NCBI GenBank assembly: GCA_030950965.1
Contig: JAUZQP010000123.1
Coordinates: 1-25,457, forward strand
DNA: 25,457 nt
Direction of reading: 5' to 3'
Source: Mariprofundaceae bacterium
GTDB taxonomy: Bacteria; Pseudomonadota; Zetaproteobacteria; Mariprofundales; Mariprofundaceae
Shown here: one piece after another, positions 6,351-11,746 of the stretch
Layout of the letters: every line of letters begins with the position of its first letter
How positions within the stretch are numbered: position 1 is the stretch's first letter
Notes under the pieces: generated by a model
What the model was told of the DNA's origin: nothing
Databases searched by the model: none
The model's input: only the letters and a program-made list of their open reading frames with translations
Program-made: the position numbers and the translations under genes

Positions 6351-6437
6351 CTGGATTGCAGCTTTTACTAGGTTGTTTATAGTATGGCTTCTGTGGTGTT
6401 AGCCAAGGCGTAACACTCGGCACTCAGGAGGCTGATG

Positions 6438-6851
6438 ATGAAAATAGTTTACGTGAGCATAATGGTTTATTTGGCATGTTTGCCATTTTCGCTCCATGCA
6501 GCACCATTAAATAAATTTGGCACCATACAACAGCAGATGACTGTGCCGCAAATGCAACAAACCGCGTTACCCCCTCCCATACAGCAACAACCCATTGCAG
6601 ACATCGCACCTCAAGCGGTTGAGCCTGTTCAAGCTGCACCTGTTGTGAAAAAAGAAAAACATACAGTCATACTCAATAAAGTGGAAAAATTACTCTCGAG
6701 TTTACCCTTGGAAAAATTAAAAGCGTGGCAGGGAAGATTTGAAGATAAGCGTCAAGCTGCGAAGCAAGCGGGAAAAACAAACGTGATGAAATACTATAAT
6801 AACCTCATTGTTTTATGTGAGAAACTCAAAAAAGATGGTGGACAACCATGA
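6438..6851 (+). CDS. Hypothetical exported protein (signal peptide, Q/P-rich linker, basic helical C-terminus)
   Basis: AGGAGG at 6426-6431 favours ATG 6438. Sec-like leader MKIVYVSIMVYLACLPFSLHA. ATGA overlap with the next gene. Confidence 0.75.
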   Translation: MKIVYVSIMVYLACLPFSLHAAPLNKFGTIQQQMTVPQMQQTALPPPIQQQPIADIAPQAVEPVQAAPVVKKEKHTVILNKVEKLLSSLPLEKLKAWQGRFEDKRQAAKQAGKTNVMKYYNNLIVLCEKLKKDGGQP

Positions 6852-7408
6852 AACATCTATTCATTCTACTATTATGCTGCACGATTACTAATGTAAGTTT
6901 AGCGAATGAAGCCATGGATGAGGCGGCGATTGACGCTGCATTGAATGCGGTGGTGGCTGTTGGTGAACAGATGACAGAAGATGCACCTGCTGCCTCTTCG
7001 CTTCCTCCTGTTGCCGCCCCCATTATTGCTACGCCTGTAAGTAAACTTTCAGCGCTGCCTGACATCGTGCAAGTTAACCGCAGTGAACTCAATACATGGA
7101 TGCAGCAGCAGCAAATACAAGCGAATGTCATCACCAATCAAGCGAATAATCAATTGTGGACGACCACATTATTGGCGGCGGTCTGGTTGATTACTTTTAT
7201 TATGCTTTTGCAGTTCATGCGCCGTGAAGGCTGCAAAGAGTATGTAAATATCATTGGTTTGAATCTAATTATTTTTGCCACGGTATTTATGGTATTGGTG
7301 GTAGAAACAGATCAGCAATTAACTGCCGGTGCTGGGATTCTTGGTGCCATTGCAGGCTATATATTCCGCGCTATGCAAAGTGAACAACCGGGGGAAAGTA
7401 AGTCATGA
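6848..7408 (+). CDS. Hypothetical membrane protein (signal peptide, A/P-rich linker, about 3 C-terminal hydrophobic segments)
   Basis: Leader MKHLFILLLCCTITNVSLA. Hydrophobic stretches LLAAVWLITFIMLL, IIGLNLIIFATVFMVLVV and GAGILGAIAGYIF. ATGA overlaps on both sides. Confidence 0.78.
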   Translation: MKHLFILLLCCTITNVSLANEAMDEAAIDAALNAVVAVGEQMTEDAPAASSLPPVAAPIIATPVSKLSALPDIVQVNRSELNTWMQQQQIQANVITNQANNQLWTTTLLAAVWLITFIMLLQFMRREGCKEYVNIIGLNLIIFATVFMVLVVETDQQLTAGAGILGAIAGYIFRAMQSEQPGESKS

Positions 7409-9353
7409 CCCTGCCTGTTGTGATTGATCACAACCATGCGGTGGAGCTTGCTCCACGCATTTGGTGGGTAGGGCATGTGCAAGAGGATGACCCTTTTCAA
7501 TGTCATGTGTATTTAATTGAACAGGGTGAACATTCGGTGTTGATTGACCCTGGTTCTAAACTCACCTTCGCGCACACCCTGAGAAAGATTGAAGAAGTCA
7601 TTTCTAAGTAGGTGCACAAAAGTCTTTTAACATTTCTAGCTTGCCTATTCGCGCGATATTCTTCGTTATGAAAAACGTTATATATTAACAATATGCGCCG
7701 TTTTCATGCCTTGACTTTCACGAAATATTCGGCGCAATAAATTGTCAAAAGACTTATGCACACCTACTTATCAGCCACATCCGCTATTTTATTTGCCAAC
7801 ATCAAGACCCTGATATTGCAGGAGCTATGCCGTTAGTTGATGCTTTAAACACCCATAAGGATGCTGTGCTGGTAACGCATTGGCGGGCTAAAATGTTGCT
7901 GCGTCACTATGACCTTGCTATGCCCTTTTGGTTGGTGGATGAACATGGTTGGAAGCTGGAGCTAGAAGACCGTACTTTGGAATTTGTGTTTACACCATAC
8001 GCTCATTTTCCTGGCGCTTTTGTCACCTATGACCATGCGAGTAAGGTCATGTTTTCCAGCGACCTTTTTGGTGGTTTGACGAAAGAGTTTTGTTTGTTCG
8101 CTAAAGACACTTCGTATTTGGAAGCGATGAAGCCATTTCATCAGCATTATATGCCGAGTAACGAAATTCTTCAGTTTGCTGTGACTGAAATGGAACGCTA
8201 TCCGATGAAAATGATTGCACCGCAGCATGGTTCAATCATCCCACAGCCGCTGATTCAAACATGTATAGACTACCTCAAAGGGTTGGACTGCGGCTTGTAT
8301 ATGCTGCTGGGGCGTGAAAGTGATATACAAAAGCTATCGCGTTTTAATGAAACACTAAAAAAAATCACCCGCACCATGATGGTATGCCGTGATTTTAAAG
8401 AAATTGCCCAAGGCTTGTTAGATATTATCAGCGGTGAAATTGAGGCGACTTCGTTGAGTTTTCATGTGCGTGATGCACAGAATCAAGTGCTTTATTTCCA
8501 TAGTCGAAATCGTTACAGAGGCGTTTCCTACGAAATGCCTGAAGTCATCAGTACATGGTTGGACAACCCACAATCAAACGATCAACCTTATGTGTTCGCA
8601 CACGACAAAACACATGACAAACACTACATTTTTGTTCCACTCAATGCCCAACATGGACTTCACGATGAAGAAAGTAGCATCAACACAGTGGTGCAAATTG
8701 AACTAGCGCAGAAGCAGCCGTCCGAACCACACTTGAAACGCCTATTGGAGCAAATGATGCTGCCATTGCAAGTGGCGATTGAACGCGAAATGATTTTTCG
8801 CGATATGGATAAAAAACGGGAGGAGATTTATGCCCGCGCTATTCGTGACCCTTTAACAGGTCTATTCACCCGTGTATATATGCAAGATATGATGCAAACG
8901 CTACTGGAGCAAGATGATCGCAACAAAAATAAAAACATCTCCGCTGTGATGATGGATATTGATCATTTCAAACGTGTTAATGACACCTATGGTCATCCAC
9001 AAGGTGATATTGTATTGAAGAAAATCGCCGCCTGCTTGTTGGAAAACTGCCGCTCTGGTGATATTCCCGTACGCTTTGGTGGTGAAGAGTTCATCACCTT
9101 TTGCACCGGTACAGCAGAGCATAACAGTAATCGTTTTGCTGAACGTCTGCGCGCCAGTATTGAATCACTATCATGGCCATACCCTATGACCGAGGAGGCC
9201 ATTACCGCCAGTTTTGGCGTTGCCCTACGCATTGATTATGAATCACTGGATGATTTAATTCAACGCACCGATGATGCACTTTACCAAGCTAAACGAGGCG
9301 GAAGAAACCGCGTGATTACCGCTGATGATCAGCAGGAACATCAACACCGTTAG
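7405..9353 (+). pseudogene. MBL-fold (ODP-type di-iron) + GAF-like + GGDEF diguanylate cyclase, interrupted by a MITE
   Basis: The 5' fragment 7405-7605 (VELAPRIWWVG...VYLI...VLIDPG) joins in frame to 7770-9353 (ISHIRYFICQHQDPDI...AHFPG...SSDLFG...IAPQHG...DPLTGL...DIDHFKRVNDTYGH...RSGD...RFGGEEF...ADDAL-like TDDALYQAKRGGRN) once 7606-7769 is removed, giving 594 aa. Confidence 0.88.
7607..7768. mobile_element. 162-bp MITE (family E) with a TA target duplication
   Basis: 26-bp terminal inverted repeats match 22/26 (AGTAGGTGCACAAAAGTCTTTTAACA vs AGTAGGTGTGCATAAGTCTTTTGACA). TA flanks both ends (7605-06, 7769-70). Non-coding and AT-rich, and excision restores the frame. Confidence 0.88.
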
Positions 9354-9372: not shown

Positions 9373-9446
9373 TGGAGCGGGCAACGGGAGTCGAACCCGT
9401 GTAATCAGCTTGGGAAGCTGAGGTAATACCGTTATACCATGCCCGC
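9373..9446 (-). tRNA. tRNA-Gly (anticodon CCC)
   Basis: Reverse complement: GCGGGCA acceptor/TGCCCGC, anticodon arm TCAGC-TTCCCAA-GCTGA, T-arm ACGGG-TTCGACT-CCCGT, 3' TCCA. 74 nt. Confidence 0.96.
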
Positions 9447-9583: not shown

Positions 9584-11746
9584 TTAGTTTACGCCAATGG
9601 CTTCGCGCCAAGCTAGGACTAGGCGAAACATCTCGTTGCTGAGGTCAATGCTTAGCTCTTTTTTGAGTTCGGACAAAGAGGCGTAAGGATCAGCATCATC
9701 CAACTCTTCCATGACCGTCTCAAAATCTTCTACTAAGCTTGGTACATCAATATGGTAAGCGCCGCGAACCAATGCAATATAATGATTGAGTACGGTCTTT
9801 TCACTTACGCCTAATGCTGCTCCGATTGCCTCAAGGGTGTTACCTTTACGGTACAATGCCCATGTATGCCCCTGCGCATCGGTTGGGGATGACCCTTTTG
9901 CCATCAGCTTGAGCGCGTGCTGGCCCTTGCCAGTCTCTTTGGCTGCCTCATCGCGGGCATATTGTTCCAACACGGGACGGAAAAACGCCGCGTAAGCATC
10001 GAATTTGTGCTGTCCCATGCCGCTGAGGCGCAACAGTGCCTCATCAGTGACCTTATTGATTTGACTCATTTCGGTCAATGTGACATCGCTGAATAATGTA
10101 TGGGGTGCTACTTCTTCACGTTCCGCCAAAAAATCACGTACTTCAACGAGCTTTTTAAACAGCGCTTCGTTACGTCCTTGACTAAAACGTTTAAGCTTGC
10201 GCTTAATACCTGGTTGGTAACGAGCGAGGATAACAGGGGTATTATCACGCAATAAAGCGCGCCCTTTTTTGCTAATGGTTAGCGCACCACGGCGAGACAC
10301 ATCCTGTGTAAAATAACCTTGATGTACAAGTTGACGTAAAATCGCCATCCATTCATCGACATTAATGGTTTTATTAAAAGCATGCATTTTTAAACGTTCG
10401 TGCTTATTGGCTAAAATACGTGCGTTTTTTGAACCACGTAAAATATCGACAATATAGCCGATGGCAAAGTCACCCTTAGCATCACGAACACATTGCACCG
10501 CCGCCTGAGAGAAATCGGATGCATCATAAGTTTCAGGTGGGTCAAGACAGACGTCACAATTGCCGCAGTCTTCTTCGCGTTCTTCACTAAAATATCCCAG
10601 TAACACACGACGACGGCAGGTTAATGCCTCCGACAATGCCACCATACTGTTCAGTTTGTGGATTTCGACACGGCGTTGTTCGAGGTTTTCCACATTTTCA
10701 ATCAGACGGCGTACTAAGTTCACATCACCAGAACCGTACAGCAACAAAGCTTCAGACTCTAAACCATCACGTCCAGCACGACCTGTTTCTTGATAATAGG
10801 ACTCGATACTTTTTGGCAAATCATGATGAATAACGAAACGCACATTGGGCTTATCCACTCCCATACCGAAGGCAATGGTCGCTACAATCACGTTGATGCG
10901 GTCACGCAGAAAGTCATCTTGCACTTTTTCACGCGTCCGACCAGGCATACCTGCATGGTAGGCCGCAGCACGAATGCCGTGACGTTGCAGGTTTACTGCC
11001 ATATCTTCTACACGCTTACGCGACAAACAATAAATAATGCCTGACGCGCCTTTCCAATCCTCTAAGAACTGTAGTACTTGCGTCAACGGTTGGCGTTTTT
11101 CGGACACTAAGTAACGAATGTTGGGACGGTCAAAGCTGGAGACAAAGCATTTCGCCTTGGTCAAAGCCAGTCGCTCGGCAATATCTTCCCGCGTGTGTTC
11201 ATCCGCTGTTGCTGTGAGTGCAATCATCGGTACATCGGGCATCACGGTACGCAATTCGCCTAATCGTACATACTCAGGGCGGAAGTCATGCCCCCATTGC
11301 GACACACAGTGCGCTTCATCAATGGCGAACAATGCCACTTCTATTTTCTCTAAGCGGGCAAGGAAGGTCTTGGTTAAGAGCCGTTCTGGTGCAACATAGA
11401 GTAGGTCGAGTTCGCCAGCTTCAAATTTTGCCAAAATTTCTTTGGCCTCAGCAGATTTCAATGATGAGTTGTAGTATTCCGCTTTAACGCCACAGCGTGT
11501 TAAGGCATCTACCTGATCTTTCATCAGCGAGATCAAGGGTGATACCACAATCCCTGTGCCTGGGCGCATAATGGACGGAATTTGGTAACACAACGATTTA
11601 CCACCACCTGTCGGCATCAGCACGAAGGCATCTTTGCCATCAAGCAGTGAGCAGATAATCTCTTCCTGCATGGGGCGAAACATGTCATAGCCGAATGTGT
11701 CTTTTAGGACTTTTCGAGCGTGTTCTTTAACTTTTTTTGTAGCCAT
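9584..11746 (-). CDS. recQ: ATP-dependent DNA helicase RecQ
   Basis: MPTGGGKSLCYQ, IDEAHCVSQWGHDFRPEY, ATIAFGMGVDK, YYQETGRAGRDG, Zn cysteines (CRR...CGNCDVC), RQC and HRDC regions, plus a C-terminal extension. Confidence 0.96.
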   Translation of the reverse strand: MATKKVKEHARKVLKDTFGYDMFRPMQEEIICSLLDGKDAFVLMPTGGGKSLCYQIPSIMRPGTGIVVSPLISLMKDQVDALTRCGVKAEYYNSSLKSAEAKEILAKFEAGELDLLYVAPERLLTKTFLARLEKIEVALFAIDEAHCVSQWGHDFRPEYVRLGELRTVMPDVPMIALTATADEHTREDIAERLALTKAKCFVSSFDRPNIRYLVSEKRQPLTQVLQFLEDWKGASGIIYCLSRKRVEDMAVNLQRHGIRAAAYHAGMPGRTREKVQDDFLRDRINVIVATIAFGMGVDKPNVRFVIHHDLPKSIESYYQETGRAGRDGLESEALLLYGSGDVNLVRRLIENVENLEQRRVEIHKLNSMVALSEALTCRRRVLLGYFSEEREEDCGNCDVCLDPPETYDASDFSQAAVQCVRDAKGDFAIGYIVDILRGSKNARILANKHERLKMHAFNKTINVDEWMAILRQLVHQGYFTQDVSRRGALTISKKGRALLRDNTPVILARYQPGIKRKLKRFSQGRNEALFKKLVEVRDFLAEREEVAPHTLFSDVTLTEMSQINKVTDEALLRLSGMGQHKFDAYAAFFRPVLEQYARDEAAKETGKGQHALKLMAKGSSPTDAQGHTWALYRKGNTLEAIGAALGVSEKTVLNHYIALVRGAYHIDVPSLVEDFETVMEELDDADPYASLSELKKELSIDLSNEMFRLVLAWREAIGVN

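Follow-up and report, generated by a model that had tools for sequence, protein, structure and literature searches.

The stretch of DNA analysed here (25,457 nucleotides, contig JAUZQP010000123.1 of GenBank assembly GCA_030950965.1; hereafter the window) comes from a Mariprofundaceae metagenome-assembled genome (MAG) of 1.3 Mb that is 58% complete (G000, in which the window is contig C28). It carries three consecutive genes on the + strand, which we call g1, g2 and g3 and which encode a small secreted protein, a membrane protein and, in two pieces, a predicted sensor diguanylate cyclase. An earlier reading of the letters alone (the sequence-only reading) had described three genes chained by ATGA overlaps behind a strong AGGAGG, and inspection of the sequence confirms each of these features. 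The Shine-Dalgarno AGGAGG before g1 (6426–6431, +) lies 3 nt from an ATG at 6435 and 6 nt from another at 6438, the latter being the better spaced, and g1 (6435–6851, +) is accordingly an open reading frame of 138 aa, or of 137 aa from ATG 6438. The ATGA at 6848–6851 provides both the stop of g1 and the start of g2 (6848–7408, +; 186 aa), and the ATGA at 7405–7408 does the same for g2 and g3, an arrangement in which the three genes would form a single transcription unit, with co-transcription presumed. The locus is very probably a g1-g2 cassette followed by a gene for a sensor cyclase of about 594 aa, built from an oxygen-binding di-iron protein (ODP) domain, a GAF domain, a helix and a GGDEF domain, and cut at codon 67/68 by an IS630-type miniature inverted-repeat transposable element (MITE).

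The interruption can be read directly from the frames. The frame that opens at 7405 runs through the N-terminal fragment of g3 (7405–7605, +; 67 codons, holding the first strands of the ODP fold, a metallo-beta-lactamase (MBL) fold) and ends at a TAG at 7609–7611, and the remainder continues in another frame (7770–9353, +; 527 codons and a stop), with the rest of the ODP domain up to about 8300 followed by the GAF fold and the GGDEF domain. Between these pieces lies an element of 162 bp (7607–7768) flanked by TA on either side (7605–7606 and 7769–7770), the whole unit of 166 bp spanning 7605–7770 with no strand assigned; its terminal inverted repeats are about 31 nt long and 84% complementary. 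Deletion of 164 nt, that is the element plus one TA, yields a stop-free frame of 594 codons. The repaired junction (...EEVIS joined to ISHIRYF...) has the length seen in 44 homologues (...EEVIPFxxIKYF...) and is seamless on the chain of a solved ODP (PDB ID: 6qrq), where residues 22–63 correspond to the N piece and residue 66 onward to the C piece, and the insertion site is uninterrupted in the orthologues of four related lineages (G004, L064, L065 and L068). The repaired 594-aa protein proposed in the sequence-only reading is thus reproduced by removing 164 nt, but it is not what the DNA as assembled encodes: in the host genome the coding sequence is broken by the MITE between codons 67 and 68, and a full-length sensor cyclase therefore cannot arise from the assembled allele. 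As assembled, g3 is a recent pseudogene, an allele that yields only a 68-residue stub.

The element belongs to a family with about 30 loci in the host MAG (35 BLAST matches, 14 full-length loci), in which seven further copies are 94.6–97% identical to the one in g3 and many copies lie at contig ends. All full-length copies start with TAAGTAGG, end with CCTACTTA and are flanked by TA, and the sequence around them differs. A 1170-bp element in the same genome (G000:C194:312-1481) has the same ends as the MITE and a 328-codon frame matching the IS630-type DDE_3 transposase, and is likely to be the autonomous partner that mobilises the family. Inverted repeats, a TA duplication, many copies and a DDE_3 partner with matching ends are the marks of the IS630-family MITEs, and all are found here; the shared ends, the TA duplication and the DDE_3 partner therefore make the element an IS630-derived MITE with TA target duplication. 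Other bacterial MITEs derived from IS630/Tc1-mariner elements have the same TA duplication, inverted repeats, size of about 160 bp, multiple copies and autonomous DDE_3 relative, and beside them the g3 element is ordinary, merely located in coding sequence. Three of the copies (G000:C74:138-303, C12:7918-8083 and C138:9179-9342) have an identical 12-nt right flank, ggtaactcgcaa, which points to insertion into another repeat or to co-amplification with one.

The domain that the MITE has cut is the putative sensor. The two g3 pieces were analysed separately throughout, except in the pairwise comparison of substitution rates given below, for which they were joined and set against three orthologues. 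The Pfam ODP profile (PF19583, cut-off 27.2 bits) matches the N piece over profile positions 1–36 with 30.5 bits and the C piece over positions 39–194 with 162.2 bits. The motifs picked out in the sequence-only reading, HQDPD (7800–7814), AHFPG, SSDLFG and PQHG, all occur in the C piece, which also carries FHQHY, and PQHG sits within a longer APQHG. Among solved structures the best matches of the N-terminal domain are two ODPs (PDB IDs: 6qrq/6qwo and 6qnm/6r9n; E about 1e-15), with flavodiiron proteins second. Each ligand motif has its counterpart in both ODPs, with HQDPD, His in AHFPG, Asp in SSD and Gln-His in APQHG all pairing one-to-one, and across 45 aligned homologues none of these ligand residues varies. 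The full ODP ligand set is present, namely an HxDxD motif 2 lacking the third His, the His of motif 3, the Asp of motif 4 and the Gln-His of motif 5, the Gln of motif 5 in place of the third His of motif 2 being a peculiarity of ODPs (PMC7785958). A profile search found no flavodoxin module, and the MBL domain continues into the GAF fold instead. Pfam, the ligand alignment and the missing flavodoxin module together uphold the earlier assignment of an MBL domain lacking flavodoxin to the ODPs, and the N-terminal domain is, by its sequence, an ODP-type di-iron MBL domain. By homology the cyclase would sense Fe(II) and O2, and homology would likewise be the guide to the direction of regulation.

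The region that follows (8325–8843, +; GAF-fold domain and signalling helix) had been called GAF-like, and the description holds for the modelled fold but finds no counterpart in a Pfam GAF sequence match, as none of the Pfam GAF models hits the middle region at E<=0.1. An AlphaFold2 (AF2) model of residues 178–362 has a mean confidence score (pLDDT) of 84.5, and when it was searched with Foldseek against the PDB the top 26 matches at E<=1e-3 (E 7e-5 to 1e-3, TM 0.5–0.65) were nearly all GAF domains, whose fold is a six-stranded antiparallel sheet with helices on its sides, including those of Nlh1, KdpD, PDE5A, PDE2A and phytochromes; the one odd match is a radial spoke protein (PDB ID: 7jrj). 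The middle domain is GAF-like by its predicted fold only. In the numbering of the C piece the GAF fold occupies residues about 186–318, and residues 319–358 form a helix of some 40 residues leading into the GGDEF domain. For the C piece taken as a whole, the AF2 model (pLDDT 86.6) matches two solved cyclases (PDB IDs: 5llw and 4zmu) over 350–420 columns.

The GGDEF domain (8838–9311, +) is full length, with 140.4 bits to Pfam GGDEF (PF00990, profile 1–161 of 161) and 150.6 bits to TIGR00254 (NCBIfam). A profile search of the repaired protein had been proposed as a check on the domain assignment; run on the two g3 pieces, it recovers ODP above its cut-off in each piece and a full-length GGDEF. 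Also borne out are the GGEEF (9078–9092) and the RSGD inhibitory site, or I-site (9051–9062), which is five residues upstream of GGEEF. In the 45-homologue alignment R435, G437, G438, E440 and D431 are invariant and E439 and R428 nearly so, and the conserved D, K, N, R and G positions of the GGDEF domain are invariant as well. The g3 GGDEF domain keeps an intact A-site and I-site and is predicted to be a diguanylate cyclase.

Comparison with orthologues indicates when the break occurred. The MITE is the sole lesion in the 594 codons, and the joined frame is 84–85% identical in amino acids to each of the three orthologues, with a ratio of nonsynonymous to synonymous substitution rates (dN/dS) of 0.045–0.065 at dS >1.4. 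Such low dN/dS implies strong purifying selection during essentially the whole history of g3, and since no second lesion has accumulated the insertion is recent. An intact orthologue of 592 aa is found on a Joint Genome Institute (JGI) metagenome contig (L064, 2481–4259; ODP 209.5 bits over profile 1–194, followed by GGDEF), and those on two other JGI contigs (L065 and L068) are intact as far as the contig ends. A different lesion is seen in the lineage of the related genome G004, where a frameshift right after GGEEF divides the cyclase into pieces of 526 and 53 aa in three assemblies (L062 and L063, 5492–7265; L022, which is G004:C27, about 2860). The frameshift is identical in L062 and L063, which are separate JGI assemblies, and is therefore genuine and no assembly slip. 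Within the clade that carries all three genes, at least two independent events have inactivated the ODP cyclase: the MITE insertion in the window and the frameshift of the G004 lineage. In two congeners (G003 and G005) g1-g2 is present and the cyclase is not downstream, and in a further genome (G002, 95% complete) g1, g2 and g3 are all without a match.

The two genes ahead of the cyclase have a history of their own. The g1 product is a small secreted or periplasmic protein. Its signal peptide (hydrophobic residues 1–20) is followed by a conserved APLNKF where the mature chain is predicted to begin, then by a linker rich in Q and P and by a helical C-terminal part. The g2 product is a membrane protein with a signal peptide, an exposed acidic and Ala-rich region of about 85 aa and hydrophobic segments at residues 105–124 and 132–155 (by hydropathy), after which DQQLTAGxGxLGAxAGY is invariant in an alignment of 19 homologues. 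Neither has a significant Pfam or NCBIfam match, and in the protein atlas g2 falls in 'hypothetical protein' clusters only. The relatives of the host genome that have g2 are MAGs deposited as Mariprofundaceae or Zetaproteobacteria, and in four of them (G003–G006) a g1 orthologue lies directly upstream of g2. Within Mariprofundaceae g1-g2 occurs without the cyclase in three genomes, followed by convergent crcB and mgsA/rarA (G003), tsaD (G005) or an M48 peptidase gene (G006), and also on contig L066, where no cyclase lies within 1.1 kb of the pair. Among GTDB species representatives g2 has relatives at 22 loci, with the cyclase in G004 only; 18 of the cyclase-free loci lie beyond Mariprofundaceae, in Nitrospira, Sulfuricella, Geobacter, Desulfuromonadaceae, a gammaproteobacterium and others. 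At the distant loci the small secreted gene is retained directly upstream of the g2-like gene, and the remaining neighbours vary. The g1-g2 pair, a predicted envelope cassette, is an independent two-gene unit that exists on its own in many bacteria.

Some further associations of the cassette were seen. It often stands beside peptidase genes (papain-type C1 at three loci, caspase-type C14 at one, and the M48 gene of G006), and on two Mariprofundaceae contigs (L066, 2670–4034; L067, 1587–3094) it lies directly behind a gene for a pseudopilin resembling the G protein of type II secretion systems. In a gammaproteobacterial MAG (L043) a REC-HD-GYP gene is convergent to the g2-like gene. The cyclase of Mariprofundus erugo has a hypothetical gene upstream of it that was considered as a relative of g1 and rejected (E 2.7).

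The sequence-only reading had gone further and proposed an envelope-linked module in which the cyclase works with the two uncharacterised proteins, and it is here that the comparison departs from it, as gene neighbourhoods show the cassette and ODP cyclases mostly apart. The trio of g1, g2 and cyclase with its 4-nt ATGA overlaps is found in five related lineages (the window; G004 with L062 and L063; L064; L065; and L068), and that it has been kept across lineages with a saturated dS of 1.2–2.2 is what one would expect if the three formed a single signalling module, with g2 anchoring or modulating the cyclase and thereby coupling the periplasm to cyclic di-GMP (c-di-GMP); the REC-HD-GYP neighbour in L043 would suit such a module too. 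However, the trio was not found to recur across independent lineages: g1-g2 stands alone at 22 other loci, including G003, G005, G006, L066 and the 18 loci elsewhere, and ODP cyclases stand alone in at least 9 genomes or loci. Four genomes of the family have an ODP cyclase at 44–48% identity and no g2 match, and five more distant ODP cyclases (54–58% identity) sit beside unrelated genes behind gaps of 150–300 bp. The lineages that bear the trio are all close kin and so represent one evolutionary event, and with the trio restricted to this one clade, a gene order passed on by descent accounts for the association no worse than a functional link would. The retained ATGA overlap thus argues for co-transcription in the trio clade, while a dedicated partnership is unsupported by the comparison, and we regard the module as unlikely. 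More speculative still, and in our view very doubtful, is the idea that g2, as a membrane partner or anchor, ties an Fe(II)/O2-sensing source of c-di-GMP to the envelope of obligate iron oxidisers, a link that lineages adapting to differing regimes of oxygen and iron would shed or toggle, possibly reversibly through excision of the MITE.

A separate set of alternatives concerns the cyclase itself. The intact g3 product would be a cytoplasmic sensor diguanylate cyclase whose di-iron site, by homology to the solved ODPs, would bind Fe(II) and then O2. The state of iron occupancy or oxygenation may shift the conformation or association of the sensor, and this change would be relayed through the GAF domain and the long coiled-coil helix to the geometry of the GGDEF dimer and hence to the rate of c-di-GMP synthesis, with product inhibition through the RxxD I-site. 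It is quite improbable, though conceivable, that the ODP domain instead senses NO, H2O2 or redox state, or that it is catalytic rather than sensory; behind the ODPs, flavodiiron NO/O2 reductases are its nearest kin, and the ODPs studied number only two, both from chemotaxis systems, but the ODP-specific ligand positions are all kept, the flavodoxin module for electron input is absent and the domain is fused to a signalling output. Whether the gene still acts in nature is a different matter. The MITE could be polymorphic in the population and merely captured in the MAG consensus, or it could serve as a reversible on/off switch by precise excision, and there is something to be said for this: the 594 codons are otherwise undamaged and were under strong purifying selection until recently, the MITE family looks active (copies 95–97% identical, with an autonomous IS630-type element present), and removing the element with one TA restores the frame exactly. 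The sister lineage has, however, an independent and non-reversible frameshift in three assemblies, and the cyclase gene is missing from other congeners, both of which fit gene loss better than switching, and queries with the 3-kb locus and with a 1-kb part of g3 listed no sequencing run that could reveal an empty-site allele. We think a functional g3 in the natural population rather unlikely. Highly improbable, by comparison, is a truncated GAF-GGDEF protein of 508 aa acting as a cyclase deaf to its sensor. There is an open frame of 508 codons from an ATG at 7827 with an AGGAG at 7820–7824, but only 2 nt separate the AGGAG from the ATG, and in the orthologues this motif is simply part of the reading frame. 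With 86 residues, HQDPD among them, missing from the start of its MBL fold, the product would probably not fold properly. No promoter-like site on the + strand was found in or after the MITE, nor any promoter pointing outward from it, promoter and terminator sites in the region being no commoner than in shuffled sequence. We therefore favour a sensor cyclase gene recently lost to a MITE, next to a cassette that is independent of it. Weighing against this reading are the persistence of the g2-g3 ATGA coupling in five lineages despite dS >1, which leaves room for a real functional link, the dependence of the proposed ligand and sign of regulation on 25–30% identity to chemotaxis ODPs, and our finding no biochemical study of any ODP-GGDEF fusion in the literature searched.

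The surroundings of the locus differ between lineages. In the window the cassette has a housekeeping neighbourhood, with miaB, phoH, ybeY, corC, gpsA, a Smr-domain gene and lipB upstream, and tRNA-Gly(CCC) (9373–9446, -) and recQ (9584–11746, -) are oriented convergently with the cyclase gene. In the G004 lineage dnd-like, PAPS-reductase and AAA genes come before the cassette and tatD and recQ after it. An Rfam scan gave the neighbouring tRNA-Gly as its sole match, with no riboswitch and no RNA family matching the MITE. The host genome also carries a second ODP on another contig (G000:C132, L061, 2012–4851, -), an intact 255-aa protein that stands alone, matches PF19583 with 194 bits and has both HQDPD and PQHG, and the stop of its gene overlaps the start of that for a 692-aa hybrid histidine kinase (PF24820 sensor, PAS, HisKA, HATPase and REC). 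The two are likely to form an ODP/two-component pair, and with this second ODP intact, iron and oxygen sensing by ODPs may persist in the host despite the broken cyclase.

The g3 protein is a further, broken member of a known and widespread family of Proteobacteria. Among the matches listed, proteins that combine PF19583 and PF00990 in 590–610 aa make up at least 120 clusters, all of the same architecture, from hosts such as Mariprofundus (M. erugo), Photobacterium, Competibacteraceae, Roseospira, Thiocystis and others, and are annotated just as 'diguanylate cyclase'. They share the architecture of g3 at 45–58% identity, but their genes are uninterrupted and lie singly, with neighbours that vary, whereas g3 is split by a MITE and coupled by ATGA to g1-g2. 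Literature searches on ODPs together with GGDEF or c-di-GMP, and on diguanylate cyclases of Zetaproteobacteria, found no study of an ODP cyclase. The sequence-only reading had held that its proposal would matter most if the host were a microaerophilic iron oxidiser, and the host does belong to Mariprofundaceae, within the iron-oxidising Zetaproteobacteria. In ODP-GGDEF proteins a single chain would link Fe(II)/O2 status directly to c-di-GMP, and such a family suits obligate microaerophilic iron oxidisers, since their two substrates are Fe(II) and O2. The value of the g3 copy is as a pointer to this family and to its intact orthologues (e.g. the 592-aa protein of L064); the copy itself is a clean case of MITE-driven gene loss, not a new system.

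Each part of the g3 protein has a counterpart in systems already described. The ODPs of Treponema denticola and Thermotoga maritima (Muok et al. 2019, doi 10.1073/pnas.1904234116, as cited in PMC7319448) resemble it in matching PF19583 and lacking flavodoxin, and HQDPD, H(F/S)xG, SxD, FHxxYM and APQHG align with all ligands free of gaps. They stand alone, however, as proteins of about 250 aa whose targets are chemoreceptor/CheA complexes, whereas g3 joins ODP, GAF and GGDEF in a single chain whose output would be c-di-GMP, its identity to them is moderate, and the copy studied here is interrupted. The TREND paper credits Muok et al. 2019 with having already described ODPs fused to signal-transduction domains (PMC7319448). 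For the GAF-helix-GGDEF part the best structural counterparts are Dcsbis/PA2771 (PDB ID: 4zmu) and the Idiomarina phytochrome cyclase IsPadC (PDB ID: 5llw); these are without an ODP domain, and the GAF domain of g3 is too divergent for the Pfam GAF model. A similar design is found in Bhr-DGC, the hemerythrin diguanylate cyclase of Vibrio cholerae. Globin-coupled sensor cyclases, namely DosC/DgcO and BpeGReg, form another such group (PMC7033309). All three follow the logic predicted for g3, in which a metal centre that binds O2 stands at the N-terminus and a middle domain or helix connects it to a GGDEF domain bearing an I-site, but the sensors are not homologous, being a haem globin in DosC/DgcO and BpeGReg, a four-helix hemerythrin in Bhr-DGC and a predicted di-iron MBL fold in g3.

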